DNA from: a bacterium
GTDB lineage: Bacteria > UBA8248 > JACPRG01 > G963555815
Length of the DNA: 64,000 nt
NCBI GenBank assembly: GCA_965249615.1
Contig: CBDFMI010000006.1
Location: forward strand, 444,132-508,131
Direction: 5' to 3'
Under the pieces are notes generated by a model. That model saw only the letters and a program-made list of their open reading frames with translations, was not told where the DNA came from and did no database searches. Below are positions 5,442 through 47,692 of the stretch, one piece after another. Made by a program: the position numbers and the translations under genes. Position 1 is the first letter of the stretch. The number at the start of each line of letters is the position of its first letter.

Positions 5442-5769
5442 TCCCCGGGTTCCATCCTAGCGAAGACATTCGGGGTCTCAAGGACCCAGTCCGCCTATAG
5501 GGCCCTTTCCTCATTGGAGGTCAGTCTAACCTCTCTTGGACTCTCGTCCAAGGGGGTTGTTTTGCGAGGACGGCAGGTTTCTCGAAAGGGACGGCTTAAG
5601 GGTGTCCGGGCTGAAAACGGGCTGAACAAAAGAGATCTTGCTGAATTTTGGAGAGGGGAGTATACTGGCGCCACTTTTTTACTAACAGATGTTCTCATCC
5701 AATCAGCCCATTCGCATCTGCTGTTCTCTTAATATATCGGTCTTCTATCGTCTGTGGGGAGGAGAAAAG

Positions 5770-9794: not shown

Positions 9795-9831
9795 AGGTTA
9801 AAGGGCTCGACTCGGACTTGGTGCACACAGC

Positions 9832-12039
9832 ATGAACCGCTGGTCCTTGCTTCGGCGAGATTTTTTGGGATGGCTGGCGGTTTCGGCAGGTCTGGGCGTA
9901 TTTGAATCGGTCTTGCTGGCCTTCCAAAGACCTAAGATCAACCCCTTCGCGGCCATCGATCTGGTCGCTCTTTCGATTTCTGCCGTCCTTTTCAACTCCC
10001 TGATGGTTCTACCCGTTTCACTCGGTCATTTTTTCTTGTATTGGCGGTTTTCTGGAGGCCACGACCATCAGGCGCAGGGCCGAAACGTCTTTTTATTTCA
10101 CCTCGTCGTGTTCCTCGCGGTTGCGTTCATCATTTTTATTGGCCGAAGGCTCATCCTTACGGTTCCTGCAACTATTCTGATGTCCGCGGGCCTTTGGTTC
10201 GGCCTTAGATATCTTTCGACAAGGATTGTTCGGGCATTTTCAGTAGGTGCCGGTATTTTCCTCTTGGCACTTTTTTCGTATGAGTCCCTCCGCTTGCCGC
10301 TCTATATCACAGACCCCGATTATGAACTATGGAAGTCGGAAGTTACGTTATGGGAGGAGGAAGACCCGCGATGTGAGACGCACCTGCGCTTCTCTACTCT
10401 CAACGGCGACCTGGGGTCCCTCGATTCCAGGAACTGTTCCAATTACTACCTGGAGAAGTTCAGGCAGGTAGAAGCGGAGCACCAATCACTGCCGAACGTT
10501 ATTCTGGTTCTTGTCGATACGCTTCGCCCCGATCACCTGTCCACATACGGCTATCATCGAGAGACATCGCCTTTTATTTCGAAGCTGGCGGCGGAGGGGC
10601 TAAAATTTACCAATTTCTATGCGAACGGTGCGTGGACCCCGCCGACGACTTCAACGCTTCTAACCGGCGTTTTTCCCGCAATCCATGGGATATATGAGCC
10701 TGGCGGGCAAAAGAGGGAGACAGTCAAAGTCATTTCTGAGACTCTCCGTGACTACGGCTATAACACAGCCGCCTTTATCGCGAATCCACTGATTACGAAA
10801 AGCACTGGGTTGCTGGACGGATATGATTATTTCTACCGAAAACCCAGGCCGCCGGTGTCGCGGCCGTCGTTGAGGCTCGCGAGCTTCCCCAGTCCGGAGA
10901 ACCTCCTCATATGGGTGAAGTTTCTGTCTCTGTCAGATAAGGTGGTCCAGGCGTTTCGGGGTTTTGATGGGAAGAAAAACGATCTTTTAGTTCAGATATT
11001 TCCCTTCAGCCGTGAATTAGAGCCAGAAAGACAGGAAAGGATACGGGAGGAATTCCGTTTCCCCCCCGCGGAAGTCGACATGGATAAAGAACTCGACTTC
11101 CCCCGGGCGAATGAAATGGCGAACGCGGTGCTGAATTACGTGGATTACGCCTTGGCAGGTCCTGACTTCGACGTTGTGCAAACGAAATTCTTCCTCTTTC
11201 TCCACGACATGGGTCCCCACGATCCTTATAAGTTGCCCACGCCATATGACGTCCTCTTCGACCCTGGGCGCCAGGATAGGCCGGAGGCCGAAGGGGCAGT
11301 CCGGTTTTTGGATGAGTCGCCGCCTGCGTCAGTTCGGGAGAGATTGGCCCATGATTTGCCGCTGTATGACGGAGCAATCCGTTTCTTCGATGATAATTTT
11401 CAGGTGCTCTTTTCGGAACTCAAGGAACGGGGGCTTTTGGACAATACCCTAGTGATCTTGCTGGCAGATCATGGGGAAGAATTCTATGAGCACGGTGAAA
11501 TTGGACATGGGGAGAAGGTCTTTGAGGAAATTGTCAGGATCCCCCTTGTCTTGTGGTATCCAGGGGAATTGCCCTAAGGGGTCGAGGTGAAGGAGTTCGG
11601 GTCGCAGGTGGATATAATACCCACGATCGTGGATGTTCTGGATCTGCCAGTACCAGAGGGGTTGCAGGGAAAGAGCCTCTTGCCCGCGATATCCGGGAGG
11701 GGGCTAGAGAGGGTTGTGTACGGAGAAAACTTGCGTGGTTCGCAGGATTTATCGTCGGGAGATATGTTGCGATTTTTGATCCATGGCCGATATAAACTCA
11801 TCACCATGGGGACACCTAAGACAGTGCGGGAAAAATTGCTCTTTGACCTCCAGTCGGACCCGCATGAGAAAAACAACATCTGCGGGTCTGAGAAAAAGAT
11901 AGCGGAAGAAATGGAATCGCTGCTAGAGGATTTCATCGCATTGGTGAAGAAGGACCCTAGGTATTCTGAAGACCTAGAGGCCGTTGAAGTGGACCCGGAA
12001 CTGCAGAAGCGTCTAAAGGCTCTCGGATACATTGAATGA
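9832..12039 (+). pseudogene. Tandem paralog 2 of the membrane-anchored sulfatase-family protein, interrupted by an in-frame TAA (11575-11577). N-part 9832-11577 (581 aa); C-part restarts at GTG 11587, 6 nt after a GGGG RBS-like run, and runs to 12039.
   Basis: Collinear with paralog 1 over its entire length. Paralog 1 reads WYPGSLPGGLEVEEPGSQVD where paralog 2 reads WYPGELP*GVEVKEFGSQVD; same frame before and after the stop. Ends ...KRLKALGYIE. Confidence 0.6.
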
Positions 12040-12129
12040 GGGTTAAAAAGTTCGCGTCGATCCTGGTGAAAAAGCAGGCTCACCTTTGGCCCGCGATCGG
12101 GTTTTTAGTTTGAGAGGACGTGGGTAAGA

Positions 12130-13806
12130 ATGTCCATCTCCAAGGTCGCCCTCCTGGGTCTTGACGGTGCCACCTTCTACCTCCTTCGCCCCTGGATGGA
12201 GGATGGAACGCTCCCCAATCTTGCGAACCTCCAAAAACGGGGAGCCTCTGGGGTCCTTGCCTCCACCGTTCCACCGGTGACACCGACGGCCTGGTCCACG
12301 TGCATCACGGGGGTAAACCCGGGAAAGCACGGGATATTCGATTTTCGAGATTCTCCCCTCCGTCATCCCGACCGCCCCCTTCTGAGTCTATCCTCTATCC
12401 GCGCCCCCCGGCTCTGGCAGCTCCTGAATGGGGTCGGGAAAAAGACCATCATCCTCAATGTCCCCATGACTTATCCACCTGAGGCGGTGGACGGGTGCAT
12501 GGTCTCGGGGATGATGACACCGGGGCCGGAGGCGAACTACACTTATCCCCTGGAACTCAAGGCGGAGATCCGTCGGGAGATCGGAGAGTACCTGCCGGAT
12601 ATCGACCTGCCCAAGTACGACGCCGAGCGTTATGAGGATGCCCTGGCATACCTGGACTTGATACGGAAAAGTTTTTCCCAGCGGGAAAAACTTTTCTTCC
12701 ACCTCATGGAGAACCGGCCCTGGGATTTCTTCATGGGGGTTTTCATCTTGCCCGACCGGCTCCAACACGTCTTCTGGAAATATCTGGACCCTGAGGCCGG
12801 GCTCTACGGGACCGAGATCGCCCAGCGGCTCCGAGGCTCGGTCATTGACTGCTATCGTCTGATGGATGATTTTATCGGGCGCCTCGTGGAGCGGCTTTCC
12901 TCTGATACCCTCCTTCTTATCATGTCGGACCACGGTTTTGGACCCACCCAGGCCTGGATCAACGTGAGCACCTGGCTGGAGCAGCAGGGTCTCCTCAAGA
13001 TGAGGGGCCAGATGGCCCTGCAGCGACGCCTCTTGTACCATGCTGTGGGGCTGAACGAGGTGGGCTGGCTAAAACGCCTTATCCCGCAGTCCCTTCAGGC
13101 CTTCGCCCGAAAACGGGTGCGTCAGACCAAGTCCGCCTTTCGGACCGACGTTCAGGTCACCCTGGACTGGGATCGGACCCAGGCCTTTTTTCCCAGCATT
13201 CCGGCTCAAGGGATCTACATCAATGTGGAGCGGGACGGAGCGGGGATCGTCCCCCCGGGGGAGGCCTACGAGGCCCTGCGCGCTCGGCTTCGCGATTCGT
13301 TGCTGGCCCTGAAGGACCCGGCGACAGGGGAACGGATCGTGGACGCGGTGCAGTATCGAGAAGAGGTCTACCACGGGCCCGAAACCCCCTACGCCCCGGA
13401 CCTGTTCTTCGTCGCCCGAAATTACAGCTACCTGGGCCGGCCGATGTTTGGGGGCCGAGAGGTCATCCGGTCGCGCGTCCAGGTGCCAAACGGCTTTCAC
13501 CGCCCCGACGGGATCTTCATGGCTCATGGACCTCACGTGGCCTCGGGCCGGGCGGTCACTGGCTCCCACATCGCTGACATCACCCCCACCATCCTCTATA
13601 GTCTCGGCCTCCCCGTCCCAAAAGAGATGGACGGAAAGCCTTTGTCGGAGATCTTTGAGGCGGACTTTCGGCCCGAGAAGAAGGGCCAAGAGGTGAGCGC
13701 TACTGAAAGTCCACAGCCGCCTGAGAGGACTCCCTCTGAGGCTTATCGTCCCGAGGAGGCCTCCGCCATCGAGAAACGCCTTCGGGCCCTGGGGTATGAG
13801 GACTGA
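12130..13806 (+). CDS. Alkaline phosphatase family protein (type I phosphodiesterase/nucleotide pyrophosphatase-like, PF01663-like), AP-1
   Basis: LGLDGATFYLLRPW...STVPPVTPTAWSTCITGVNPGKHGIFDF aligns to the NPP KTFPNHYS.VTG nucleophile-Thr motif; MSDHGFG metal-binding motif. Ends ...EKRLRALGYED. Confidence 0.75.
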   Translation: MSISKVALLGLDGATFYLLRPWMEDGTLPNLANLQKRGASGVLASTVPPVTPTAWSTCITGVNPGKHGIFDFRDSPLRHPDRPLLSLSSIRAPRLWQLLNGVGKKTIILNVPMTYPPEAVDGCMVSGMMTPGPEANYTYPLELKAEIRREIGEYLPDIDLPKYDAERYEDALAYLDLIRKSFSQREKLFFHLMENRPWDFFMGVFILPDRLQHVFWKYLDPEAGLYGTEIAQRLRGSVIDCYRLMDDFIGRLVERLSSDTLLLIMSDHGFGPTQAWINVSTWLEQQGLLKMRGQMALQRRLLYHAVGLNEVGWLKRLIPQSLQAFARKRVRQTKSAFRTDVQVTLDWDRTQAFFPSIPAQGIYINVERDGAGIVPPGEAYEALRARLRDSLLALKDPATGERIVDAVQYREEVYHGPETPYAPDLFFVARNYSYLGRPMFGGREVIRSRVQVPNGFHRPDGIFMAHGPHVASGRAVTGSHIADITPTILYSLGLPVPKEMDGKPLSEIFEADFRPEKKGQEVSATESPQPPERTPSEAYRPEEASAIEKRLRALGYED

Positions 13807-13807
13807 G

Positions 13808-14878
13808 ATGGCAGGTCTGATGACGAAAGTCTCCCATGCCCTTCGAGGGGGTTGGGGGACCCTTTTGAAGGTCGGGGTGAGTGGACTGCTCATCCTTGTC
13901 CTCATTTGGCAGGTGGATTTCGATCGGCTTTGGGTCGTCGTCCGGGATATGTCCCCCGCCTGGCTCCTCCTGGCGCTCTTCTTCAAGTCGGGAGGGGTAT
14001 TCTCGAGCATCCTTCGGTGGCGAGTGCTTCTGAAGGGACAGGACCTCGCCGTCCCTTTAAAAGTCCTCACCTCCTCCTTTCTCGAAGGCCGTTTCTTCGG
14101 CACCTTCACGCCGAGCACCATCGGCCTTGACGCCTATCGAACGTATGACCTGGCCAAGTATTCCGGCCGAACAGCGGCCTCGGTTTCAGTCACATTGGTG
14201 GATAAGGTGATCGGGCTGTTCTCTCTCTCCTTTCTCGTGGCGGTCACCTCATTTGCCGGCGCCCGGTTTGTTGGAGGGCAAGGGGTCTTCTCCCTTCTCC
14301 TCGTCTTCTGTGTCCCCCTCTCCCTGTCCCTGATCTTTCTCCTTTTTCCGGGGCTCCTTGGCCGACTCGTCGACATCAGGAGGTGGAAATCAGGAGGATG
14401 GGCGGAGAAGATGGGCCGTTTCGTCGAAACCGTCACCGTCTATCGCCACCACCGGATCCTCATTGTTCAGGCGGTCGGGCTCGCTATCTTGGTCCACCTT
14501 GGGACCACGCTCATGTATTACGGGACGGCCCTTTCGGTGCAAGCCCCGGTCAGCCCCTTGGACATCCTCTTCGTTGGGCCCCTGATGATCACGGCGACGG
14601 TCATCCCTCTTTCTGTGGCCGGGATCGGGGTCCGTGAGGGGACCTTTGTCTTCTTCCTCACTCGGGTGGGGATCGAGGCGGAGGCCGCCATCCTTCTCGC
14701 CTTTCTCGGGTTCCTCGTAGGCGAGGTCATCAGCCTTTTCGGAGGCTTCATCTTCCTGTTGCGCTCCCACGCGTATCATCGGCGTGAGGGGGGGGTCGCC
14801 GGGGCCGCGGAAAGCGGCCTGGGCAAAGCCGGGGGTGAGGAAGAGGCCGTGGGGACAAAGAAAGAGATTGGCTCTTGA
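13808..14878 (+). CDS. Flippase-like / lysylphosphatidylglycerol-synthase-TM-region family membrane protein (UPF0104). Alternative start ATG 13796, which would overlap the AP-1 stop.
   Basis: About 8 TM helices; N-terminal KVGVSGLLILVLIWQVDFDRLW...LALFFKSGGVFSSILRWRVLL pattern is characteristic of the TIGR00374/PF03706 family, often paired with glycosyltransferases. Confidence 0.5.
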   Translation: MAGLMTKVSHALRGGWGTLLKVGVSGLLILVLIWQVDFDRLWVVVRDMSPAWLLLALFFKSGGVFSSILRWRVLLKGQDLAVPLKVLTSSFLEGRFFGTFTPSTIGLDAYRTYDLAKYSGRTAASVSVTLVDKVIGLFSLSFLVAVTSFAGARFVGGQGVFSLLLVFCVPLSLSLIFLLFPGLLGRLVDIRRWKSGGWAEKMGRFVETVTVYRHHRILIVQAVGLAILVHLGTTLMYYGTALSVQAPVSPLDILFVGPLMITATVIPLSVAGIGVREGTFVFFLTRVGIEAEAAILLAFLGFLVGEVISLFGGFIFLLRSHAYHRREGGVAGAAESGLGKAGGEEEAVGTKKEIGS

Positions 14879-16551
14879 GACGCCTCCTCATCATCGGCGT
14901 CGACGCCGGCACCCTGGACCTCATCGAGCCGTGGGCCCGAGCGGGTGATCTCCCCCATCTGGCCCGTCTCCTCAGGGAGGGGGCCTATGGGCGAGTCCAG
15001 TCGACCCTCCCCCCCTCCACCTATCCCGCCTGGACCTCCTTCATGACCGGTCAGAACCCCGGGCGGCACGGTCTCGTGGACTTCACCTTGAGGGAGGGAG
15101 GGCGCTATGCCGTCAGATTCGCCAGCTCCCGAGACCGGCAAAGTGCTAGTTTGTGGGGGATCCTCAGTGAGGCCGGCCGAAGAGTCGCCGTCCTCGGCAT
15201 GCCCGCCACATACCCCCCTGAAGCCGTCAACGGCTGTATGGTCAGCGGATTCGACTCCCCCCTAGCATGGCGTCTCAACGAGAGCTTTTTTCATCCTCGA
15301 GGGCTCCACCGGGAGGTCATACAGGAGGCGGGACTCTTCCCGCTCTCGGCCTGCCGGGAGGATCGGATCGGAAAGGGCTGGCACGAGCGGGCCTATCGGG
15401 AGATCCTGAAATCACTGGAGCAAGAAACTCGCGTGGCGGAGTACCTCCTGGGCCGGGAAGCGTGGGATTGCTTCTGCGTCGTCTTCGGCCAGACAGATAC
15501 GGTGTGCCATCATTTCTGGAAATTCTTCGACCCATCCTCTCCCCGATATGACTCAGAGGGGGCGAGGCGCTTTGGAGACGCCATCCGTCAAGTCTATCGG
15601 CGTGTGGATTCAGCCATCGGTTCCCTGCTGCAAAAGGCGCCCGATGACGTCACGGTCCTCATCGTCTCGGACCACGGAGCGGGGGGGGCAGGAAACCAGA
15701 TTATTCATTTAAACGCTTGGCTGGCCGGGGAGGGCCATCTGACCTTTCGAAAGGGGGGGGTGGGCTACCGTGCCCTTTCAGCCCTGAAGACGCTGGGCCT
15801 CGGCTATCTCCCGAGGAGGGTTCAAGAACAGGTCTTTCGTGCGGGCGGGGGCAGGCTGGCAAATGGGCTAGAATCCCGCTTGCGTTTCGGCCAGATCGAA
15901 TGGGCGAAGACCCGGGTCTATTCCGAGGAGCTGGGTTATTTCCCCTCTCTTTGGATCAACCTTCGGGGGAGGGAGCCTCAGGGGACGGTGGAGCCCGGCA
16001 GGGAATATGAGGATCTGAGGGACGAGATCATCAGCCGCTTAGAGGTTCTCAGACACCCCGTCACGGGGAGGCGCCTCGTTGAGCGGGCCGTTCGGCGAGA
16101 GGAGGTTTATTGGGGCCCCTTTGTGGACCGGGTTCCTGACATTCTCCTGGAGCTCGCCCTCGACGAGGGCTATAGCTACTCCTGCCTTCGAAGTCCAGCC
16201 CGCTCCCAGGGCCCCTTCGTTCGCTCTCTCCAGAGAGCGGAGGGGGCCAGGGGCCAGGGGATGAACGGCTCACACCGACCAGAGGGGTTTTTCGTTCTCT
16301 CGGGTGAGGGGGTGCGCCCGGGGAAGTGCCGGTTCACCCCCCATCTCATGGACTTTGCCCCGACGCTTCTCGCCCTTTTGGGGATCACCCCTTCGGTGGG
16401 GATGGACGGTCGGGTCTTGGAAGAAGTCCTGAGCGTCCCTGAGCCTCATCCCGTCCCCGTCGCCGTGGCAGGGGAAGAGACGCCTTCGGCGGCCCAGGGG
16501 TGGGAAGGCACGGCCTTCCGGCGGCTTCGGGACCTTGGATACCTGGAATGA
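14875..16551 (+). CDS. Alkaline phosphatase family protein (type I phosphodiesterase/nucleotide pyrophosphatase-like), AP-2; TTG start overlapping the upstream stop
   Basis: IGVDAGTLDLIEPW...STLPPSTYPAWTSFMTGQNPGRHG...VSDHGAGGAG; paralogous to AP-1. Ends ...FRRLRDLGYLE. Confidence 0.72.
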   Translation: MRRLLIIGVDAGTLDLIEPWARAGDLPHLARLLREGAYGRVQSTLPPSTYPAWTSFMTGQNPGRHGLVDFTLREGGRYAVRFASSRDRQSASLWGILSEAGRRVAVLGMPATYPPEAVNGCMVSGFDSPLAWRLNESFFHPRGLHREVIQEAGLFPLSACREDRIGKGWHERAYREILKSLEQETRVAEYLLGREAWDCFCVVFGQTDTVCHHFWKFFDPSSPRYDSEGARRFGDAIRQVYRRVDSAIGSLLQKAPDDVTVLIVSDHGAGGAGNQIIHLNAWLAGEGHLTFRKGGVGYRALSALKTLGLGYLPRRVQEQVFRAGGGRLANGLESRLRFGQIEWAKTRVYSEELGYFPSLWINLRGREPQGTVEPGREYEDLRDEIISRLEVLRHPVTGRRLVERAVRREEVYWGPFVDRVPDILLELALDEGYSYSCLRSPARSQGPFVRSLQRAEGARGQGMNGSHRPEGFFVLSGEGVRPGKCRFTPHLMDFAPTLLALLGITPSVGMDGRVLEEVLSVPEPHPVPVAVAGEETPSAAQGWEGTAFRRLRDLGYLE

Positions 16552-17768
16552 GTGGAGAGAAAGGATCTCGTCGGAAGGTGGCCATGGTGGCCCCCTGTCC
16601 CTTCCCAAGCGTTCAGGGCTCCCAGATCCTGATCCAGGATCTGGCCGGGGGCCTCGAGAGGAGGGGACACGAGGTCCACGTGGTCACTTACCCCTTCGGG
16701 GGCTCCCGTCCGACCGCTTCCTTGCGGATCCACCGGGCTGCCTGTCCCCTTCGTTATGCCGTGGACCACCCGGGCCCTCATCTCTATAAACCTTTTCTGG
16801 ACCTCTTCGTCTTGAGAGAGCTCCTGCGGGTCATCCGCGGGGAGGGGATTGAGCTCCTCCACGCCCACAGCTATGAGGGGTTGCTCATCTCCCTGCTGGC
16901 CGGAAGGTGGACGGGCATTCCCGTCCTCTATCACAGCCACACCCTCCTCGAGGAGGAGCTCCCCACCTATTTTCGGGCCTCGTGGAAGCGCGCCCTGGCG
17001 CATTGGGTGGGCCGACTGCTGGACCGACAGCTTCCGCGTCGGTCAGACCATTGCATTGCCCTTTGTCAGAGAACCCTTGGGGCCTTTCGGGCCTTGGGGG
17101 TGGCGGCGGATCGCTCTTCCTGCATTCGTCCTCTGATCTTTTCCCCCGCCGATAAAACTCCTTCCAGGGTGGATGTAGAGCGCCATCCCTTCATCCTCTA
17201 TACGGGAAACCTCCACCCGTATCAGGATCTCAATCTCCTGATGGAGGGGTTCGCCGAGGTGGCCTCGAGGCTCTCAGAGGTCCGCCTGGTTATCGCCACC
17301 CATTCTGACCCTTCCCATTACGCCGCCCTGGCAAGGGCCCTGGGGCTGTCGGAGCGGGTCTCCTTTCGCGTGAAACCTCCCTTGGATGAAGAGTGGGGTT
17401 TGATGCGGAGGGCCGACCTCCTCGTCTGTCCGCGCCTTCGGTGCTCCGGCTACCCCATCAAGCTTTTGAACTACCTGGCGGCTGGAAGGCCCATCCTCGT
17501 CAGTGAGGGCTCGGCCGAGGGGATTCGCCATGGCGAGAACGGCTACGTTGTCTCTCGGCCTGAACCGAAAACCCTGGCGGAGGGGGCTATTCAAATCCTT
17601 CAGTCCCCCGCCTTGGCAAAACGGTTGGGCGAAGGGGCGGCCCGGACCTACCGGGAGGAGGTGGCGGAAGAGCGCTCCTTGTCGGCCATCGAGGCCATCT
17701 ACACGCAGTGTCTGGGGGAGGAGGGGAACGCGGCCCTCCTCGCCCACCCGAGGGAAATGGCCTCATGA
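16548..17768 (+). CDS. Glycosyltransferase family 4 (group 1)
   Basis: ATGA start/stop overlap with AP-2. N-terminal VAMVAPCPFPSVQGSQILIQDLAGGLERRGHEVHVVT (GT4 N-domain) and C-terminal ...CPRLRCSGYPIKLLNYLAAGRPILVSEGSAEGIRHGENGYVV (E-x7-E-like donor-binding region). Confidence 0.75.
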   Translation: MSGEKGSRRKVAMVAPCPFPSVQGSQILIQDLAGGLERRGHEVHVVTYPFGGSRPTASLRIHRAACPLRYAVDHPGPHLYKPFLDLFVLRELLRVIRGEGIELLHAHSYEGLLISLLAGRWTGIPVLYHSHTLLEEELPTYFRASWKRALAHWVGRLLDRQLPRRSDHCIALCQRTLGAFRALGVAADRSSCIRPLIFSPADKTPSRVDVERHPFILYTGNLHPYQDLNLLMEGFAEVASRLSEVRLVIATHSDPSHYAALARALGLSERVSFRVKPPLDEEWGLMRRADLLVCPRLRCSGYPIKLLNYLAAGRPILVSEGSAEGIRHGENGYVVSRPEPKTLAEGAIQILQSPALAKRLGEGAARTYREEVAEERSLSAIEAIYTQCLGEEGNAALLAHPREMAS

Positions 17769-19168
17769 CCAAGGTCTTGATCCTGGGCCTCGATTGCGCA
17801 GACCCTCGCCTGGTCTTTGACCGCTGGCGACAAGAACTTCCGAACCTCAGACAGCTCATGGAGGCCGGCGTCTGGGGCCCTCTTCAGAGCACCATCCCCC
17901 CCATCACGGTCCCAGCCTGGGCCTGCATGATGACGGGGCGGGACCCTGGAGAGCTAGGGATCTATGGGTTCCGAAACCGGACCTCCTATCAGTACGGGGC
18001 CCTGGGGATCACCAGCTCTCTCTCGGTCCAAGAGGAGACCCTGTGGGACATCCTGGGCCGCACCGGCCGGGAGGTGGTGGTCGTCGGGGTCCCTCCTTCA
18101 TATCCTGTGAAGCCCGTCCGGGGCAGCCTCATCTCCTGCTTTCTCACCCCGAACGCCGAGGTCCCTTTCACGCATCCCCCTGAGCTCAAGGAGGAGGTTC
18201 AGCGTCTTGCCGGCGGGTACCTGTTTGACGTGGAGGGATTCCGGACCGACGACAAGCCCCGGCTCCTCCAACAGATCCACGAGATGACAGAAAAACGCTT
18301 TAGGGTCCTGAAACACCTACTCACCCGAAAGCCGTGGGACTTTTTTATGTCGATGGAGATCGGGGTGGACCGCATGCATCACGGCTTTTGGAAATTTCAC
18401 GATGAGGGCCACATCAAGCACCCCCCGCAAAACCCCTATCAGCACGTCATTCTGGACTATTACCGCTATGTGGACAAGGAGATCGGTGAGCTGGTGGAGT
18501 CCGTCGACGAGGACACGGTCATCATCGTCCTCTCTGATCACGGGGTGAAGAGGATGGAGGGGGGGCTGTGCGTCAACGAATGGCTCATGAAGCAGAAATA
18601 TCTGAGCCTCTCCGCCTACCCCAAGGAGCTCACCTCCCTCAGCAAGCTCGATGTGAACTGGGACCGGACCATGGTCTGGGGAGAAGGGGGGTACTATGGC
18701 CGGATCTATCTCAACGTAAAGGGCCGGGAACCCCAGGGGGTCATCGCCCCAAATGACGTGGAGAAGATCCGGGCAGAGCTGAAACAGGGCATGGAAGAGC
18801 TTTCCGACGAATCAGGGCGCCCCCTCGGGACCCGCGTATTCTATCCCGAGGAGGTCTATCAGGAGGTCCGGAGGATCCCGCCCGATCTCATCGTCTATTT
18901 TGGAGACCTGGACTGGCGCTCTGTCGGGACCGTGGGCCATGGCTCGATCCACACCCGAGAGAATGACACGGGCCCTGACGACGCCAACCACGACACCCAC
19001 GGGATATTCATCATGGCGAAGAAGGCGGACCTCAAAGGGGGCGGGACCGGTCTGGGAACCCGCCTCGACGGTCTCAGCCTCTACGACGTGACCCCCACCG
19101 TCCTGGACCTCCTTGGCCTTCCCATCCCACCCTCGATGCACGGGCGAGTGATTTCTCCTAGAGCCTGA
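17765..19168 (+). CDS. Alkaline phosphatase family protein (type I phosphodiesterase/nucleotide pyrophosphatase-like), AP-3
   Basis: ATGA overlap with the GT4 stop. MTKVLILGLDCADP...STIPPITVPAWACMMTGRDPGELG...LSDHGV. Lacks the C-terminal LGY tag (ends ...HGRVISPRA). Confidence 0.75.
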   Translation: MTKVLILGLDCADPRLVFDRWRQELPNLRQLMEAGVWGPLQSTIPPITVPAWACMMTGRDPGELGIYGFRNRTSYQYGALGITSSLSVQEETLWDILGRTGREVVVVGVPPSYPVKPVRGSLISCFLTPNAEVPFTHPPELKEEVQRLAGGYLFDVEGFRTDDKPRLLQQIHEMTEKRFRVLKHLLTRKPWDFFMSMEIGVDRMHHGFWKFHDEGHIKHPPQNPYQHVILDYYRYVDKEIGELVESVDEDTVIIVLSDHGVKRMEGGLCVNEWLMKQKYLSLSAYPKELTSLSKLDVNWDRTMVWGEGGYYGRIYLNVKGREPQGVIAPNDVEKIRAELKQGMEELSDESGRPLGTRVFYPEEVYQEVRRIPPDLIVYFGDLDWRSVGTVGHGSIHTRENDTGPDDANHDTHGIFIMAKKADLKGGGTGLGTRLDGLSLYDVTPTVLDLLGLPIPPSMHGRVISPRA

Positions 19169-20042: not shown

Positions 20043-20675
20043 CTAGTCGATATATCCCAAGCCCTTCAGTTTGGCCTGGATGGTCTGCTTCTCTTCCTCG
20101 GAATAGACGTAATCGGCGGGCTCGATGTAACCGAATTCTTCCAGCCGAGAGAGAATATGCGCGACAGATTCCTTAACCGACTCTTTGTCCGTCTCGACGG
20201 TTATCTCGGGGTTGAGGGGCTCTTCATAGGGGTCTGAGACCCCCGTAAAATTCTTAATCTCACCCTTAAAAGCTTTCGCGTACATCCCTTTCACGTCCCG
20301 TTCTGCGCAGACCTCAACAGGGCATTTGACGTAGAGCTCCACGAAGCGCCCCACCTCGGCCCTTACGGCGTCTCGGATGGCCCGGTAGGGGGCGATGACC
20401 GCCGCCATGTTGGGAACCCCGTTTCGGGTCAAGAGGTGACAGAGGTATCCCAGGCGAATGATGTGCTTATCGCGGTCCTCTTTGGAGAAGCCGAGGTCGG
20501 CGCTGAGATTGCGGCGCACTTCGTCGCCGTCGAAGACCTCGACGTTCGGAAAACCGCGCTCGTGAAGTTTCTCTCCGAGAAGAACGGCAATCGTGCTTTT
20601 CCCTGAGCAGGGAAGGCCTGTGAACCAGACCGTGAACCCTCTGGGTTTATCTTTGATCACTTTCTCTCTCCTCAA
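20043..20675 (-). CDS. cysC: Adenylylsulfate (APS) kinase with a C-terminal extension carrying the LGY tag
   Basis: RGFTVWFTGLPCSGKSTIA (P-loop), FDGDEVRRNL and the LTRNGV core of APS kinase. The C-terminus reads ...LSRLEEFGYIEPADYVYSEEEKQTIQAKLKGLGYID, i.e. two copies of an L..(F/L)GYI(E/D) element. TTG start overlaps the sat stop by 2 nt. Confidence 0.85.
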   Translation of the reverse strand: MRREKVIKDKPRGFTVWFTGLPCSGKSTIAVLLGEKLHERGFPNVEVFDGDEVRRNLSADLGFSKEDRDKHIIRLGYLCHLLTRNGVPNMAAVIAPYRAIRDAVRAEVGRFVELYVKCPVEVCAERDVKGMYAKAFKGEIKNFTGVSDPYEEPLNPEITVETDKESVKESVAHILSRLEEFGYIEPADYVYSEEEKQTIQAKLKGLGYID

Positions 20676-21850
20676 GAGCCGCCGTCAGAACCCTGTCCTG
20701 CCCGCTCGGCGTAAGCCTGGTGCAAGACCCGGGCGACTTCAGGCCGCATCACCTCCGGGGGTGGAAGCTCCCCGCGGTCTAAAATTTCCCTCACACGAGT
20801 TCCGCTCAGGAAGACGCGCTCTTTCTCCCCGTGGGGGCAGGTCTTGGCCGTTATCATGGCCTCACACCCACGGCAGTAGAAGGCGTGGTCGAAGAAGAGA
20901 GGGGTGATCCCGATCTCCGAGGCCTCGAACTCGTGGAAGATATGGTGGGCGTCATAGGAGCCGTAGTAAGACCCGACGCCGGCGTGGTCCCGGCCCACGA
21001 TGAAATGGGTACAGCCGTAGTTCTTTCGCACGATAGCGTGGAAGATGGCCTCCTTCGGCCCGGCGTAGCGCATGGCCGCCGGAAACACGGAGAGGACCGT
21101 CCGGTTCTTGGGAAAATAGCTCTCCAGGATCACCCTGTAGGAGGCCATCCGGAGGTCCGCCGCCAGGTCGCCCTCCTTGGTGGCCCCGACCAGGGGATGA
21201 AGTAGGAGGCCGTCCACACATTCTAGGGCGCACTTCTGAATGTACTCGTGGGCGCGATGAATGGGGTTTCGGGTCTGGAAGGCCACGACCGTCTTCCACC
21301 CCTTGAGCTGAAAGAGAAGGCGGGTCTCCTTGGGTTCCAGATGGAAGTTGGACCACTCGGTGGCGGCCCCTCTTCGAAGGAGTTTAATAGGCCCCCCGAT
21401 GAGGACAGGGCCTCGCTCGAAGACCTGGCGAACCCCGGGGTGGTCCGAATCTTTTGTCCCGAAGACCTGCTCCACCTCCCTCTCCTTGTCCGGCTTCCAC
21501 TGAGAGGTGACCCGAAGAAGCCCGGTCGTTTCCTTCCCGACCGTGAGGGTAATCTCGTCACCTATGGAAAGGGTCTGGGCCGTCTTCTCATCCACGCCGA
21601 GGACGATGGGAAGCGTCCAGGGAAGGCCCAAGGCGAGGCGCTGGTCTTCCACCACAGCCTGGTAGTCCTCCTCCTCCATGAATCCCCTTAGGGGGCTGTA
21701 GGCCCCCGTCGCGATGAGTTCGAGATCGGAATGCTCCTGGGCCGACAGGGCGATTTTCGGCAGCCCTTGGGCTTTTTTGTCCAAGGCGGGCCGATCCTCC
21801 TCCCGGACCATCCGGTCGACGAGGACCCCGCCGTGCGGTTTGATAGGCAC
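20672..21850 (-). CDS. sat: Sulfate adenylyltransferase (homo-oligomeric ATP sulfurylase)
   Basis: VVAFQTRNPIHRAHEYIQK contains both the QTRN and HRAH motifs; 392 aa; translationally coupled to cysC. Confidence 0.85.
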   Translation of the reverse strand: MPIKPHGGVLVDRMVREEDRPALDKKAQGLPKIALSAQEHSDLELIATGAYSPLRGFMEEEDYQAVVEDQRLALGLPWTLPIVLGVDEKTAQTLSIGDEITLTVGKETTGLLRVTSQWKPDKEREVEQVFGTKDSDHPGVRQVFERGPVLIGGPIKLLRRGAATEWSNFHLEPKETRLLFQLKGWKTVVAFQTRNPIHRAHEYIQKCALECVDGLLLHPLVGATKEGDLAADLRMASYRVILESYFPKNRTVLSVFPAAMRYAGPKEAIFHAIVRKNYGCTHFIVGRDHAGVGSYYGSYDAHHIFHEFEASEIGITPLFFDHAFYCRGCEAMITAKTCPHGEKERVFLSGTRVREILDRGELPPPEVMRPEVARVLHQAYAERAGQGSDGGS

Positions 21851-22045: not shown

Positions 22046-23464
22046 TTATCTCCCGGTGGCGGGCTCTAAATTCACCTCGATATAGCGCGCAATCTGGGGG
22101 TGGACTCGGGAGATCTCGTGGTAGATCTGCTGAGCCGCCCTCCGGTAGGTGAAGTGCCCCTTGGGGTCGGAGCGGAGCTTCACCACGTGCATCACCTCCC
22201 GGAGGTTCATCTGCCAGAGGAAGCGGCGGTGATGAGCGTTTAGGACAAAGTAGGGGGCCTCGTTCGGAAAATCCGCCAAAAACTTCTCAAAACACTTCTC
22301 GGCCTTGTCCACCCCTGCCAAATATTCTTGTTTCAACCCGGCGTCCTCGACGAGCTCGGGGATCGAGAACCCGTGGCGGATGGTCGGGGCCTGAGTGCTC
22401 TGGCTGCACATCCGGTGGCGCTTGAGGTCGAGGAAGGCCCCCTGGTCCACGAGACACTCGAAGGTGTAGGTCAGGTACTCCATCTCCCGGATGGGGATGT
22501 CAAAACGCTCTATTCGGCTCAGGGCCTCTTCAATGACTTTTTCCCGAGCTTCTTGGGGCATCTGTGCCACCCTCTCCCGGATGGCCTCGTAGGGGAGATG
22601 ACTGTATTTGAACAAGATGGCCGCCGCCAGGGCGACGTCGGGGTTTTCGGGGACCTGAACCAGCCGGGCATAATTTTCCTGAGGGCCGGACGCCTTTGAG
22701 ACCGGGGAGCCGTTGGTCATGGTAGAGGCGACGAGCTTCCTGAGGGCCGCCTCCGTGTCTCTCAGATAGGCGTTGTCGTCTGCATACTTGACGAGGGTTG
22801 GGGCGGCCGCCTGGCTGACCTCCTTCAGGGTGGTCCCGATCTGTTGGATTTCGGACAGGTCGTGGGAGAGCATCTTGGTGATGGCGTGCTCCAGGTGTCG
22901 GGCGTTGACGGTCATCCCCACATTGGCCAGGGCGGCGGTGGGGAGGAGAAAGCGCGAGCGGTCGAGGGCGTGGGCCCTCACGCGGACGTTGTATCCCCGA
23001 TCCGTCTCGTTCTCCCTCCTTTGGAGGACCCCCTTCTCTTTGATGAAGGCGTCCAGCTTCGTCTGGACGGCGTGGTAGTTCTCGAACATCCACTGCATGG
23101 CCTCGCGGTATTTTTGGCCGAGGGGTGAGGCGTCCACCTCGTCTGGGACATAATAGTCGTCCGGCTTGAAAACCTGATAGCGGGAGGATTTTTCGGTGTA
23201 GGAGGCGAGACGGTTCGCCTCGATGACTTCCGTTGCGTAGCGCGAAACATTCTCGATGGCGATGGAGAGGACGGCGTGCTCGGCCACCGAGGCGTGCCCA
23301 TAGCCGACGACCCATTTCTCATGGAACTCGGCCGAGGCGCTTTCGGTCAGCTCCTTGGCGATCTCGTCAAAGGCCTTTGGGGAGCGACTCGTCTTCGCGA
23401 AGGCGACGGCGACCACCTCGGGCGGGAGGTCCCGGAGGAGATAGATGCGGCGTTTTTTGTCCAT
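22046..23464 (-). CDS. thyX: FAD-dependent thymidylate synthase ThyX, long tandem-domain form
   Basis: The C-terminal half carries the canonical LKRHRMCSQS (RHR..S) motif. The N-terminal half is Thy1-like (GHASVAEHAVLSIAIENVSRYATEVIEANRLASYTEKSSRYQV) with a degenerate RHR; 472 aa is about twice a standard ThyX. Confidence 0.6.
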   Translation of the reverse strand: MDKKRRIYLLRDLPPEVVAVAFAKTSRSPKAFDEIAKELTESASAEFHEKWVVGYGHASVAEHAVLSIAIENVSRYATEVIEANRLASYTEKSSRYQVFKPDDYYVPDEVDASPLGQKYREAMQWMFENYHAVQTKLDAFIKEKGVLQRRENETDRGYNVRVRAHALDRSRFLLPTAALANVGMTVNARHLEHAITKMLSHDLSEIQQIGTTLKEVSQAAAPTLVKYADDNAYLRDTEAALRKLVASTMTNGSPVSKASGPQENYARLVQVPENPDVALAAAILFKYSHLPYEAIRERVAQMPQEAREKVIEEALSRIERFDIPIREMEYLTYTFECLVDQGAFLDLKRHRMCSQSTQAPTIRHGFSIPELVEDAGLKQEYLAGVDKAEKCFEKFLADFPNEAPYFVLNAHHRRFLWQMNLREVMHVVKLRSDPKGHFTYRRAAQQIYHEISRVHPQIARYIEVNLEPATGR

Positions 23465-34867: not shown

Positions 34868-34953
34868 AAATTCACTGGGCCTGGGGGATTACGAAGAGCC
34901 AGGGGGTTTCCAGGACATTTTCTTTAAATCAGAAAGCGGGAGGGGAGCTCATC

Positions 34954-35610
34954 ATGAATCAGGCCCTCGATGTCACCTGCTATGTCTGCTACGTCTGACC
35001 CTTTGCCTATCGGGCCACGGAGTGGCTCGAACGTCTAAGGGAGAGTCGGCCCCTTCGGGTCGTCTATAAGCCCTTCATCCTGGAGCAGGTGAACTTCCAG
35101 GAGAAGCGGGGTCCGGAATGGAAGATCTGGGAGGACGACTTTTTCCCCAGCCGGGACCTTCCGCCCCTCGAGGCGGCCAGGTGCGCTGCCCTCCAGGGGG
35201 AGGAGGCTTTTGGGCGATTCCATCTCCTCCTCTTTCGAGCGAGACATCAGAAGAATTTTGACATCACGAACCAGCTCATCCTCCTCGACGTGGCCAAGGA
35301 GGCGGGGCTCGATGGAGAGCGCTTCGCCAGTGATCTCAAGAGCCGAAGCCAGTTGGAGGGGGTCGCCCGAGGGCACATGGAGGCCGTCGAGAAGCATGGG
35401 GTCTTCGGCGTCCCGACACTCATCTTCAACGGCGGGAGGCCCCTCTTCGTGAAGCTGGGGGAGGGGAAGTGGGAGGGGAAGGAAGACCAAAAACTCCTGG
35501 AACAACTTCTCAAGCTCTCGGTGGATCAGCCCTATGTCCTAGAGGTGAAACAGCCGAAATCGGCCGTCCTCGCCGAGGAGGCTGAGAAGAAATATCAGGC
35601 CTATCCCTAA
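34954..35610 (+). CDS. DsbA/FrnE-like thioredoxin-fold oxidoreductase with an in-frame TGA (34996-34998) at the active-site position; candidate selenoprotein (CxxU), alternatively a pseudogene
   Basis: ATG 34954 is preceded by GGGAGGGGAG. It gives MNQALDVTCYVCYV-TGA-PFAYRATEWLERLRES... in one frame, continuing into the annotated 35089 ORF. This aligns to the FrnE/DsbA-like IDV..D.VCP(W/F)CY...LE motif with the TGA in place of the first Cys. A stem-loop lies at 35010-35030. Confidence 0.55.
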
Positions 35611-45209: not shown

Positions 45210-46664
45210 ATGAAATTTGAGCAAGACTTCCAAAGCCTGATCGAGCTCGTCAGCAATGTCACAGACGCCTTCACGGCGGGAGTTTTTCTCCCCGGCCCCG
45301 CGGAGGGAATGCTGACTCTCAGGATCTATCACACCCTCAGCGACCATCTGAGGACCGATGCCCATATTGAGCGCGGGCAGGGGCTTGTCGGCTGGGTGGC
45401 CGAACACGGCAAACCCTTGAATTCCGTAGAGTTCAAGCACGACATCTCTGCCCTCGGTCTCTACGGCGGGCCAGAGGACATCAAATCTTTCATGGCCGTC
45501 CCGATTCGCACCCCAGAGGGGACCGGCGTCCTCTGCATAGACAGCAAGCGTCAATATGTCTTCACCCCCAAGGTTCAAAAGATCCTCCTCGACTTTTCGC
45601 GGCTCATCTCCTACCTGCTGGAGAACTCTGACGTCTACCGGCAGATTGGCCGAGGGGCCATCTCTCTTTCCGATATGCGGGACTACGCAGGGGCCCTCAC
45701 CCATTCCTGCGATGAGGAGGCCTTCCTCGACTCCGCTTGCAATCTGCCAAAGAAACTCCTGGACTATGATGCCTGCCTCATCGCCCTGCGGGCCCCCGGG
45801 GAGGACCGCTTTGAAGTGGCTCGCTGTATCTGTCGCTTGGAGGACCCCCTGGAGGGACGCCCGGTCGACCTCGACCGAAGCCTCGTGGGCTGGGTCCTCT
45901 CCCGCGGGGAGGTCCTTCATCTGCAGACCCTGAACCGAGAGAGGGGCAAGAGTCACCTCATCCATCCCGAAGAGCCGGCGTGGCCCGTGGCCTCTTTCCT
46001 CGGCCTCCCTCTTCAGGTGGCAGAGGATTTCCTCGGCGTCCTCGCCTTCACCCGCTCGAGGCCGGGGGGATTTTTGGATCGGGAGCTTGCGGCGGCCGAA
46101 CTGGTCCAGCGCCTGCTGTCCCTGGGCCTCGCCAACACCAGAATGCATACCAAGTGGCGGAACCTGGCCGAGGTGGACCGCCTCACGGGCCTTCCGAACT
46201 ACCGCCGTTTTCAGGCTCATCTCAAGGCCGCGCTGGAGCGGACCACCGAGCAAAAAGGGTTTCTCGCCCTGCTGGCCGTCGAGGCCGTGGAATTTCCCGA
46301 CCCGGGTCGGGAGGCTTGGCTGGGAGATGGGCTCCTCAAGGAGCTGGCGCTTCTTCACCGGCAGTTTGCGGGGGACCCGGACTTAGTGACATGCTTTCAA
46401 GGACAGAGGTTCCTCCTCGCCTTAGAGGGGGCGAGTCCCGAAGCGGCGCGGGCCCTCGCCGAGAGGCTCCGGGAGGTTGTCGAGGAGACCATCTTTCCTT
46501 CCCAGGGCCCTCAAGTCCGCCTCAGGATCCACATCGGCCTCAGCAGCTTTCCAGAGGACGGTCGCACAGAGGGGCAGCTCGTCCTTCAAGGGCTTCGAGC
46601 GCTGGAGTGGGCCAAGGAAGAGGGGCGAAACACCATCTGTTCTTGCGCGGAGGTAATGGAGTGA
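45210..46664 (+). CDS. GAF-GAF-GGDEF-domain protein with degenerate GGDEF motif (CFQGQRF in place of RYGGEEF); probably a catalytically inactive diguanylate-cyclase-like sensor
   Basis: Two GAF-like regions (GLVGWVAEHGKPLN...; LVGWVLSRGEVLHL...), then DRLTGLPNYRRFQAHL... with a GGDEF fold but altered signature. Confidence 0.65.
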   Translation: MKFEQDFQSLIELVSNVTDAFTAGVFLPGPAEGMLTLRIYHTLSDHLRTDAHIERGQGLVGWVAEHGKPLNSVEFKHDISALGLYGGPEDIKSFMAVPIRTPEGTGVLCIDSKRQYVFTPKVQKILLDFSRLISYLLENSDVYRQIGRGAISLSDMRDYAGALTHSCDEEAFLDSACNLPKKLLDYDACLIALRAPGEDRFEVARCICRLEDPLEGRPVDLDRSLVGWVLSRGEVLHLQTLNRERGKSHLIHPEEPAWPVASFLGLPLQVAEDFLGVLAFTRSRPGGFLDRELAAAELVQRLLSLGLANTRMHTKWRNLAEVDRLTGLPNYRRFQAHLKAALERTTEQKGFLALLAVEAVEFPDPGREAWLGDGLLKELALLHRQFAGDPDLVTCFQGQRFLLALEGASPEAARALAERLREVVEETIFPSQGPQVRLRIHIGLSSFPEDGRTEGQLVLQGLRALEWAKEEGRNTICSCAEVME

Positions 46665-46666
46665 GG

Positions 46667-47692
46667 ATGCCACTGAGCTTTTTGCCCCGGCGGCTGGCCG
46701 GGGACATCGCCATCGACCTCGGTACCGCCAATACCCTCATCTACATCCCCGGGAGAGGGATCGTGTTGCAGCAACCCTCGGTCGTGGCCGTTGTCCAGGA
46801 CAATGGGGAGGTCCTCGCCGTGGGGGATGGGGCGAAGACCATGTGGGGCAAGACGCCGGACTCCATCACCATCATCCGGCCCATGAAAGATGGCGTCATC
46901 GCTGATTTTGAAGTCACCCGAACCATGATCCAGTACTTCATCCGCCAGGTCTATCAGGGCCGGCGCTACTTCAAGCCTCGAATGATGGTGTGCGTTCCCT
47001 CCGGGATCACCCAGGTGGAAAAACGCGCCGTGAAGGAGTCGGCCTTTCAGTCGGGGGCCCGAAGTGTCCATCTCATCGAGGAGCCCATGGCGGCCGCCAT
47101 CGGCAGCAAGCTGCCCGTCCACGAGGTGGGCGGGAACATGGTCGTCGACATCGGGGGTGGGACCACCGAGGTCGCCGTCATCTCCCGATATGCCACCGCC
47201 TACAGCGAGTCCATCCGAATCGCGGGGGACGAGATGGATGAGGCTATCCAGGCCCAGGTGAAGCGGGTTTACAGGCTTGCCATCGGCCCCTTTGAGGCCG
47301 AACGGGCCAAGATCGAGATCGGCTCCGCCGCCCCCCTGGACTCCCCGCTGACGACTGTCATCCGGGGCCGGGACATTGTGGAGGGGATCCCCAAGGCCAT
47401 CAATGTCGACGACACCATGATCCGTGAGGCCCTCAACGGCCCTGTGAAGGCCATTGTGGAGGCCATCCGGCGGGCCCTGGAGCGTTCCACGCCGGAGCAG
47501 GCCGCCGACATCACGCGAAAGGGCATCGTCCTGGCGGGTGGCGGATCGCTTCTGAAGGGCCTGGGAAAACGCCTGCACGAGGAGACGGGTCTTCGCATCT
47601 ATCGGGCCAAGGACCCCCTAACAGCCATCGTGCGAGGGACCGGGGAAGTCCTGGAAAACATGAAGATAATGCACAAGGTCTGCGTCACCTAG
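46667..47692 (+). CDS. mreB: Rod shape-determining protein MreB
   Basis: DIAIDLGTANTLIY...DIGGGTTEVAVIS...GIVLAGGGSLLKGL are actin-fold motifs. True start is ATG 46667, just after the upstream stop; the longer track ORF is a low-complexity artifact. Confidence 0.9.
   Translation: MPLSFLPRRLAGDIAIDLGTANTLIYIPGRGIVLQQPSVVAVVQDNGEVLAVGDGAKTMWGKTPDSITIIRPMKDGVIADFEVTRTMIQYFIRQVYQGRRYFKPRMMVCVPSGITQVEKRAVKESAFQSGARSVHLIEEPMAAAIGSKLPVHEVGGNMVVDIGGGTTEVAVISRYATAYSESIRIAGDEMDEAIQAQVKRVYRLAIGPFEAERAKIEIGSAAPLDSPLTTVIRGRDIVEGIPKAINVDDTMIREALNGPVKAIVEAIRRALERSTPEQAADITRKGIVLAGGGSLLKGLGKRLHEETGLRIYRAKDPLTAIVRGTGEVLENMKIMHKVCVT

Follow-up and report, generated by a model that had tools for sequence, protein, structure and literature searches.

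DsbA-like selenoproteins are an established class, catalogued since 2005, when nine UxxC sequences were reported from the Sargasso Sea (PMC1088965). The Global Ocean Sampling (GOS) survey distinguished DsbA 1 and DsbA 2, both of the UxxC type, from DsbA 3, which belongs to pfam01323 and carries UxxV (PMC2398784). DsbA-like selenoproteins were then found in 41 organisms in a 2016 survey (PMC5029168), and a 2026 review of the prokaryotic selenoproteome separates a 'form 1', with UxxC, from a 'form 2', with the PF01323 domain and DxxUP (PMC13188914). The present analysis concerns a gene of this class in a stretch of 64,000 nucleotides from contig CBDFMI010000006.1 of a UBA8248 bacterium; the whole stretch is called the window hereafter, and positions are counted from its first letter. 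At 34954-35610, a DsbA-like reading frame is interrupted by an in-frame TGA (34996-34998). This region is very probably a genuine selenoprotein gene, the UGA being read as selenocysteine (Sec), and it is mis-annotated in public records. The distinctive feature of the clade to which it belongs, of UBA8248/Nitrospinota type and named clade A below, is a Cys in place of Asp three residues before Sec together with a coupled Cys at position 77.

Published motifs set the window protein apart from form 2/DsbA 3, of which it would be a sister subgroup or possibly a motif variant. The two have in common the PF01323 fold, Pro directly after Sec, and a +3 position without Cys. Moreover, the Dehalococcoidia and Desulfobacterales loci described below show the motifs of form 2/DsbA 3 and are full-length homologues of the window protein, at 35-44% identity. 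In contrast, the clade of the window has C-Y-V-U-P-F-A, with Cys replacing Asp at -3 in 46 of 46 clade A sequences and with the additional Cys77, and thus lacks the D-x-x-U-P string. Form 1/DsbA 1 (UxxC, COG2761, FrnE-like) also shares the DsbA fold, the replacement of the N-terminal Cys by Sec and a bacterial selenocysteine insertion sequence (bSECIS) directly downstream. However, it keeps a resolving Cys at +3, where clade A has only Ala; in the wider family, UxxC is restricted to two loci, L054 and L072. FrnE structures are distant from the window protein (profile E = 1e-7, Foldseek template modelling (TM) score about 0.57). As for the SelW-like and AhpD-like CxxU proteins, their Sec occupies the C-terminal Cys of CxxC whereas that of the window protein occupies the N-terminal one, so that only an analogy links them.

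The closest solved structure is that of DR2335 from Deinococcus radiodurans (PDB 7dk9; C24S mutant 7dka), retrieved by phmmer with E = 1e-12 and by a profile with E = 3e-29. In the literature, DR_2335 appears as a DsbA-like protein, predicted to be cytoplasmic, that has one conserved Cys and lacks functional data (PMC8945050). The two proteins have in common a single-nucleophile motif, D-F-L-C-P-Y-A-W-R in DR2335, as well as the LEQxN, RARH and FGVPT motifs. In DR2335, by contrast, Cys stands in place of Sec, residue -3 is Asp, and the position of Cys77 is occupied by Ala.

The elements of the gene are the following:
34938-34947, forward strand: Shine-Dalgarno-like GGGAGGGGAG, separated by a 6-nt spacer from ATG 34954, read directly from the sequence.
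34954-35610, forward strand: full coding sequence of the predicted DsbA-like selenoprotein, from translation, Pfam DSBA and an ortholog alignment over residues 1-217.
34996-34998, forward strand: TGA, the predicted codon of Sec15 at the catalytic nucleophile position, from the ortholog column, the alignment with DR2335 Cys24 and a structural model.
35089-35610, forward strand: truncated ORF of 173 amino acids with a GTG start, as given by gene callers.

Apart from the TGA at 34996-34998, the gene is one uninterrupted frame of 218 codons (Sec15 included), from ATG 34954 to TAA 35608-35610. It reads MNQALDVTCYVCYV up to the TGA and PFAYRATEWLERLRES directly after it (PFAYRATEWLERL over a longer stretch). 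As seen from the listing of open reading frames (ORFs) and from translation, the frame past the TGA runs unbroken into the ORF extending from GTG 35089 to TAA 35610. The position of the start codon agrees with that in orthologs, whose ORFs open at the equivalent Met. A Cys is present at -3 (codon 12, 34987-34989) and an Ala at +3. On re-reading, all that the preliminary description had stated about the frame, the UGA, the Cys at -3 and the Ala in place of the second Cys was found to be correct.

A first line of evidence comes from comparison at the TGA column. A scan using one genome per species yielded 80 related genomic loci, in which the active-site codon is TGA in 74 cases and TGC (Cys) in six. 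The carriers of TGA belong to UBA8248/Nitrospinota, Tectomicrobia, Desulfobacterales, Planctomycetia (one metagenome-assembled genome, MAG), Dehalococcoidia and some Deltaproteobacteria/Thermodesulfobacteriota; the six TGC loci are from Thermomicrobiales or other Chloroflexota. Within the window's own subclade, protein identity is 97% with L009 and 62-64% with L010-L012. MAGs labelled UBA8248, Nitrospinota or Tectomicrobia display the motif W-N-C-Y-V-U-P-Y-A-Y-R, Desulfobacterales display D-Y-L-U-P-Y-A and Dehalococcoidia D-F-R-U-P-Y-V-Y-N. In distant relatives (about 35% identity) the motif is D-[FY]-x-C-P-[FWY]-A-Y-R, with Cys exactly in the TGA column, and the Cys-form proteins P0028-P0046 as well as Cys24 of DR2335 align with this column. 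A Cys/Sec pair, which the preliminary description had expected among homologues, is therefore present, both as the six TGC genomic loci and as Cys-form proteins including DR2335. Its assignment of the UGA to the position of the nucleophilic Cys is upheld by the alignment of these Cys forms and by a Pfam DSBA match spanning the TGA.

Two Dehalococcoidia loci, L054 (3022-3069) and L072 (3031-3078), have U-P-Y-C, that is UxxC, where their relatives have U-P-Y-V; the +3 resolving Cys thus appears and disappears across the family.

In the 74 TGA loci, both flanks of the TGA encode a conserved peptide, with synonymous variation upstream and downstream. Among the 46 unique sequences of clade A, codons -7 to -1 vary synonymously while their amino acids are kept. 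For instance, Tyr is encoded by TAC in 37 sequences and by TAT in nine. The Cys at -3 is encoded by TGC in 40 and by TGT in six, a synonymous variation which shows that the codon of Cys12 is translated. Over the first 14 codons, the window differs from L009 by two synonymous and no non-synonymous substitutions, and from L010/L011 by about six synonymous and four non-synonymous ones, the latter all in residues 2-4; these counts are limited to codons 1-14 because an indel beyond about codon 30 of L010-L012 invalidates an ungapped comparison. Judging from these alignments, the peptide upstream of the TGA is translated and under purifying selection, and the conservation pattern of the TGA is more than chance.

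Elsewhere in the window, TGA terminates 29 of the 55 mapped ORFs, which bears out the earlier view of it as an ordinary stop. Examples are sat (ATP sulfurylase, 20672-21850), the gene of a class-3 fructose-bisphosphatase (5689-6882), nuoD (ending ...GEVDR) and apgM (61195-62424), in all of which the Pfam domains finish near the TGA. TGA is an ordinary stop in this genome and, because it is the normal stop of other genes of the window, the TGA inside the DsbA-like gene is a special case.

Public annotation misses the beginning of the gene. The public protein P0001 corresponds exactly to the 173-amino-acid product, and the close relatives found by protein search (>50% identity) are all annotated with a truncated N-terminus. 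In the DNA upstream of such truncated calls, the missing N-terminus is found in frame behind a stop, as in MAETLDVTCYVCYV*PYAYRAMEWL, on six independent contigs. There is no start codon in the window between the TGA and 35089, though these 30 codons are conserved as protein in orthologs. The 173-amino-acid ORF is an annotation artefact that is devoid of strand beta1, of the active site and of helix alpha1. NCBIfam has no model for this protein family, which accounts for the truncated public annotations.

The full-length protein has the features of a DsbA fold. With Cys placed at the TGA position, the Pfam DSBA profile PF01323 matches residues 7-186 across the TGA, from profile position 2 to 190 of 191, with 55.5 bits for a cutoff of 25.6. 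Structural information comes from an AlphaFold2 model of P0018, a clade A ortholog of the window protein (predicted local distance difference test, pLDDT, 85; predicted TM score, pTM, 0.83). In this model of the ortholog, beta1 covers residues 5-11 and is directly followed by Cys12, the Sec site at 15 stands just before alpha1 (16-29), and a helical insert extends from 45 to 147. Residue 15 is then at the canonical nucleophile position of the DsbA fold. A further landmark is:
35413-35415, forward strand: codon of Pro154 in the invariant F-G-V-P-T motif, corresponding to the cis-Pro loop of thioredoxin folds, an invariant column in alignments A1, A2 and A5.

The helical insertion, the nucleophile at the N-terminus of alpha1 and the FGVPT cis-Pro loop are all present, and Foldseek retrieves DsbA-fold proteins. 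Along with the Pfam match across the TGA, these hits support the idea, put forward at the outset, of a thioredoxin-fold selenoprotein. The top Foldseek match is DR2335 with its C24S mutant (TM 0.7-0.8), followed by Rv2466c, FrnE, YjbH, DsbM and kappa-GST. A CxxC dithiol active site is absent, since the motif is U-P-F-A with Ala at +3. The protein begins directly with beta1 and has no signal peptide. We infer that the family consists of cytoplasmic DsbA-fold oxidoreductases with a single nucleophile (U/C-P-x-A/V), and not of CxxC dithiol enzymes of the DsbA/FrnE type. Other cytoplasmic proteins of DsbA fold, namely Rv2466c (mycoredoxin-2, a mycothiol-dependent reductase), DsbM and kappa-GST/HCCA isomerase, are users of low-molecular-weight thiols and match structurally with TM 0.55-0.72; the window protein also gives a weak match to PF22234 (E = 0.036). 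They differ from it in relying on CxxC (Rv2466c and DsbM) or on Ser (kappa-GST and HCCA isomerase). Classical DsbA, HCCA isomerase and kappa-GST are distant from the window protein by sequence.

The second line of evidence is a hairpin located just 3' of the UGA:
35010-35030, forward strand: candidate SECIS-type hairpin with a 9-bp stem and a GGA loop (35019-35021), from folding, bSECIS criteria and covariation in the family.

The stem, UCGGGCCAC/GUGGCUCGA, pairs 35010-35018 with 35022-35030, its conserved core being 35012-35018 with 35022-35028. It begins 11 nt past the UGA, and the loop begins 20 nt past the UGA, or 23 nt from its U. The bacterial SECIS model has a loop of 3-9 nt, a stem of 4-16 bp and a G in the first two loop positions (PMC13188914), as well as a UGA-to-loop spacing of 16-37 nt and an MFE (minimum free energy) no higher than -7.5 kcal/mol (PMC13188914). 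With 9 bp, GGA, a spacing of 20 nt and -13.5 kcal/mol, the hairpin of the window falls within all these limits. Like the SECIS of E. coli fdhF type, it is a stem-loop in the coding region with a small loop starting with G, and with spacing and MFE within the model. On the other hand, the two have no sequence similarity, the loop of the window has only 3 nt (GGA), and the SECIS of the window is a predicted one. A strict version of the model, requiring a contiguous stem, was applied to 72 distinct Sec sequences, to the six Cys loci and to synonymous shuffles. It was passed by 47 of the 72 Sec sequences (42 of them at the identical spacing of 20 nt), by none of the six Cys loci and by about 14% of the shuffles.

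Covariation was assessed in clade A on an alignment of 41 sequences, with 500 shuffles and with controls in which the 3' arm was slid by 1-3 nt. Of 280 cells for the inner 7 bp, 278 are paired. As closing pair, 16 sequences have C-G, 14 have U-G and ten have U-A, and none leaves it unpaired. None of the 500 shuffles reached the covariation score, a count that is not to be taken as a probability since the aligned sequences share ancestry. Pairing amounts to 80%, against 31-46% when the 3' arm is slid. Synonymous sites of the stem are frozen. Ala+6 is GCC in 45 of 45 sequences, this being the lowest codon entropy among the gene's 42 conserved degenerate columns; Arg+5 takes only CGG, AGG or AGA (never CGY) and Leu+10 only CTN, whereas neighbouring Pro, Ala and Arg columns make use of three to five codons. 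The outer 2 bp of the 9-bp stem are found only in the window and L009. The 9-bp stem that had been proposed as compatible with a SECIS therefore folds as described, agrees with the model and covaries in the family, but only its inner 7 bp are conserved and, taken alone, the window hairpin is not significant.

Dehalococcoidia have other amino acids in this region (Y-N-A-A-x-W-L-A) and a bulged stem, CGCNGCC/GGC-U-NGCG, at the same distance from the UGA. This stem is 88.8% paired, as opposed to 20-47% on sliding; one position accepts six pair types and another shows an exchange of G-C to A-U, and the frozen codons are here AAC for Asn+5, GCC for Ala+7 and GCG for Ala+11. The maintenance, by two clades, of non-homologous stems equally far from the UGA is what would be expected of a functional SECIS. 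In the window and L009, the hairpin is further bracketed by a lower helix, CCCUU/AAGGG (34999-35003 with 35037-35041), which starts right after the UGA and is not conserved elsewhere.

Regarding the decoding machinery, one carrier of the gene, L018 (CAMYJL010000076.1), comes from the MAG FO_M_Nitrospinota_01. BSepDB credits this MAG (GTDB phylum UBA8248) with 54 selenoprotein genes, which places it in the top ten of bacteria (PMC13326102), and a BSepDB entry requires a species with at least two Sec-pathway genes (PMC13326102). Two Dehalococcoidia MAGs belong to the same top ten (PMC13326102). The listing of the MAG of L018 is indirect support for Sec decoding. In such a scheme, the 35010-35030 hairpin, whose GGA loop lies 20 nt past the UGA, would serve as a bacterial SECIS; SelB loaded with Sec-tRNA(Sec) would thereby be brought to the ribosome, and the UGA would be read as Sec and not as a stop. 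The target of Sec15 may then be a disulfide, or else a mixed disulfide involving a low-molecular-weight thiol. In clade A, the resulting selenenylsulfide intermediate could be resolved by Cys12 (CxxU), possibly with a relay through Cys77 or Cys9.

As a side observation, ARAGORN reports in the Dehalococcoidia locus L057 (1692-1761, reverse strand) a 'tRNA-???' with a two-base anticodon field, adjoining a tRNA-Trp gene.

Several observations weigh against the decoding of this UGA as Sec or against parts of the scheme above. No selA, selB or selD is present in the 64-kb window and no tRNA-Sec either, the window having no tRNA gene at all; tRNA-Sec was likewise not found in loci L009-L068. Three scans of the window gave no convincing second TGA-interrupted gene or selenoprotein candidate. 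For the window hairpin taken alone, 48% of synonymous-codon shuffles pass the model and 18% are as stable, in a GC-rich window. About one third of the Sec loci, mostly those of Dehalococcoidia and L010-L012, fail the strict contiguous-stem model. The MFE of the region (+6 to +54) is no better than that of synonymous-codon shuffles, and Cys forms fold about as well. There is no Rfam match at gathering thresholds across the window. Finally, the catalytic roles proposed for Cys12 and Cys77 are drawn from conservation.

Some leads were set aside. The matches returned by the three scans were antisense ORFs or adjacent same-frame genes. Whole-region folding energy was rejected as evidence for a SECIS, given the lack of gain over shuffles and the equal folding of Cys forms. 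A permissive Rfam scan of 34940-35120 gave only spurious matches of snoRNA type.

Among other explanations, the one that survives best, though it is quite improbable, is a read-through of the UGA without Sec. In this case, position 15 would receive Trp or Cys from a near-cognate tRNA-Trp or tRNA-Cys, or by some other recoding, and the only effect of the hairpin would be to slow termination. The missing Sec machinery in the 64-kb window and the hairpin that is not individually significant would fit such a mechanism, as would the W found at the site in the public gene call P0018. However, this W is not reproduced under the standard code, which points to the choice of code by the gene caller. Furthermore, the nucleophile position would be functional only as Cys or Sec, homologues having Cys there; the hairpin has bSECIS spacing, a loop starting with G and covariation in two clades; the carrier lineages are documented as heavy users of Sec; and TGA is a normal stop in this genome. 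In the P0018 call itself (L008, 374-1075), the translation of the Sec TGA as Trp is followed by an implausible C-terminal tail, and the gene caller had apparently applied a genetic code that reads TGA as sense.

Still less probable is a pseudogene, or a truncated protein, in which a nonsense mutation would have changed TGC to TGA, nothing or only the 173-amino-acid product from GTG 35089 being made. A single-base change does convert this Cys codon to TGA, gene callers give only the 173-amino-acid ORF, and one relative, L073, carries a further in-frame TAA. Against this, the same TGA is found in 74 loci of several phyla with intact frames, and the peptide is conserved on either side of it, with synonymous changes upstream. 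The 30 codons between the TGA and 35089 have no start in the window and are nevertheless conserved as protein, and the short product would be without beta1, active site and alpha1. The comparative data thus effectively refute a pseudogene already. As to L073, a Dehalococcoidia locus, its extra TAA lies about 23 codons after the Sec TGA (…KKSYG*EILIDW…) and may reflect a real pseudogene or an assembly error in the MAG. A sequencing or assembly error at 34996-34998, the true codon being TGC or TGT, is conceivable for a single base in a metagenome-type assembly but is scarcely credible, as the TGA is also present in L001 (98.4% DNA identity) and L009 (about 93%), from the same or a sister species, and in more than 70 further genomes.

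With the UGA taken as Sec15, the cysteines around it can be considered:
34978-34980, forward strand: TGC codon of Cys9, found only in the window subclade (window, L009-L012), which gives C-x-x-C-x-x-U.
34987-34989, forward strand: TGC codon of Cys12, at -3 from Sec, candidate resolving Cys of CxxU, from conservation.
35182-35184, forward strand: TGC codon of Cys77, in the helical insertion, clade-specific and co-occurring with Cys12.

The residue of the canonical motif that Sec matches in alignments is its N-terminal (nucleophilic) Cys; Cys12 lies three residues upstream, in the beta1-alpha1 loop. At -3, Cys is found in 46 of 46 clade A sequences and Asp in 35 of 35 sequences outside the clade, Sec and Cys forms together. 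Position 77 is Cys in 45 of 46 clade A sequences; outside the clade it is Ala in 32 of 35, the three others having Cys, Ser and a gap, respectively. The C-Y-V-U string on which a CxxU motif had been proposed is therefore real but confined to this clade, the other clades having D-x-x-U. Based on this co-occurrence, it may tentatively be imagined, though the idea is rather doubtful, that the active site of clade A has been rewired by the changes Asp -3 to Cys and Ala77 to Cys. The resolving thiol would come from upstream or from the helical domain, and not from +3, and would form a selenenylsulfide redox centre of a separate kind, undescribed among DsbA-like proteins. If so, the subclade of the window extends the motif to C-x-x-C-x-x-U.

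The surroundings of the gene are those of ordinary chromosomal core: it is flanked by a UbiE-like methyltransferase and an SDR, with the nuo operon adjacent. Its neighbours are not conserved across clades. Nitrospinota-like loci (L013-L052, L079) show on the same strand the order DUF4202, Sec-DsbA-like gene, GBBH-like_N/DUF971 (a small protein with CPCxxC). DUF4202 is found in 27 of these loci and DUF971 in 35, lying roughly 0.5 kb before and 0.8 kb after the Sec codon, respectively, and a tetrapyrrole methylase is located still farther upstream. This synteny is absent from the window and its subclade. Conserved neighbours were rejected as a clue to function, the arrangement being confined to the Nitrospinota-like clade and absent from the window.

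Other features of the window were noted in passing. A sulfatase-family gene at 9832-12039 (forward strand) is seemingly split by an in-frame TAA (11575-11577) into an ORF with the Sulfatase domain (9832-11577) and a same-frame ORF with SGSH_C (11587-12039), whereas a paralog at 7674-9794 has both in one ORF; the split gene is possibly a nonsense pseudogene, or else the assembly is wrong. The region 7674-19168 (forward strand) has five paralogs of the alkaline-phosphatase superfamily (Sulfatase/Phosphodiest), each ending with ...RL[KR][AD]LGY[VILE][ED] and then TGA, and among them an LPG_synthase_TM protein (13796-14878) and a GT4 glycosyltransferase (16500-17768). At 22046-23464 (reverse strand), a protein of 472 amino acids, about double the normal size, carries two tandem Thy1 (ThyX, flavin-dependent thymidylate synthase) domains. 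Finally, the longest ORF of MreB (45980-47692, forward strand) overlaps the preceding GAF-GGDEF gene by about 680 nt; since the MreB domain begins only at residue 242, the true start is probably near 46,700.

The finding is mainly an annotation fix and does not overturn current understanding. In public records, this gene and dozens of its orthologs appear as a truncated "DsbA family protein" without active site and, without an NCBIfam model, the family will go on being mis-called. Corrected calls add a selenoprotein to UBA8248/Nitrospinota and to Dehalococcoidia, which are among the most selenoprotein-rich bacterial lineages. The dominance of the Sec form (74 of the 80 recovered genomic relatives) argues that the single nucleophile does demanding redox chemistry. 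The clade-specific pair of Cys12 and Cys77 leads to a hypothesis on how a monothiol DsbA fold may be recycled.

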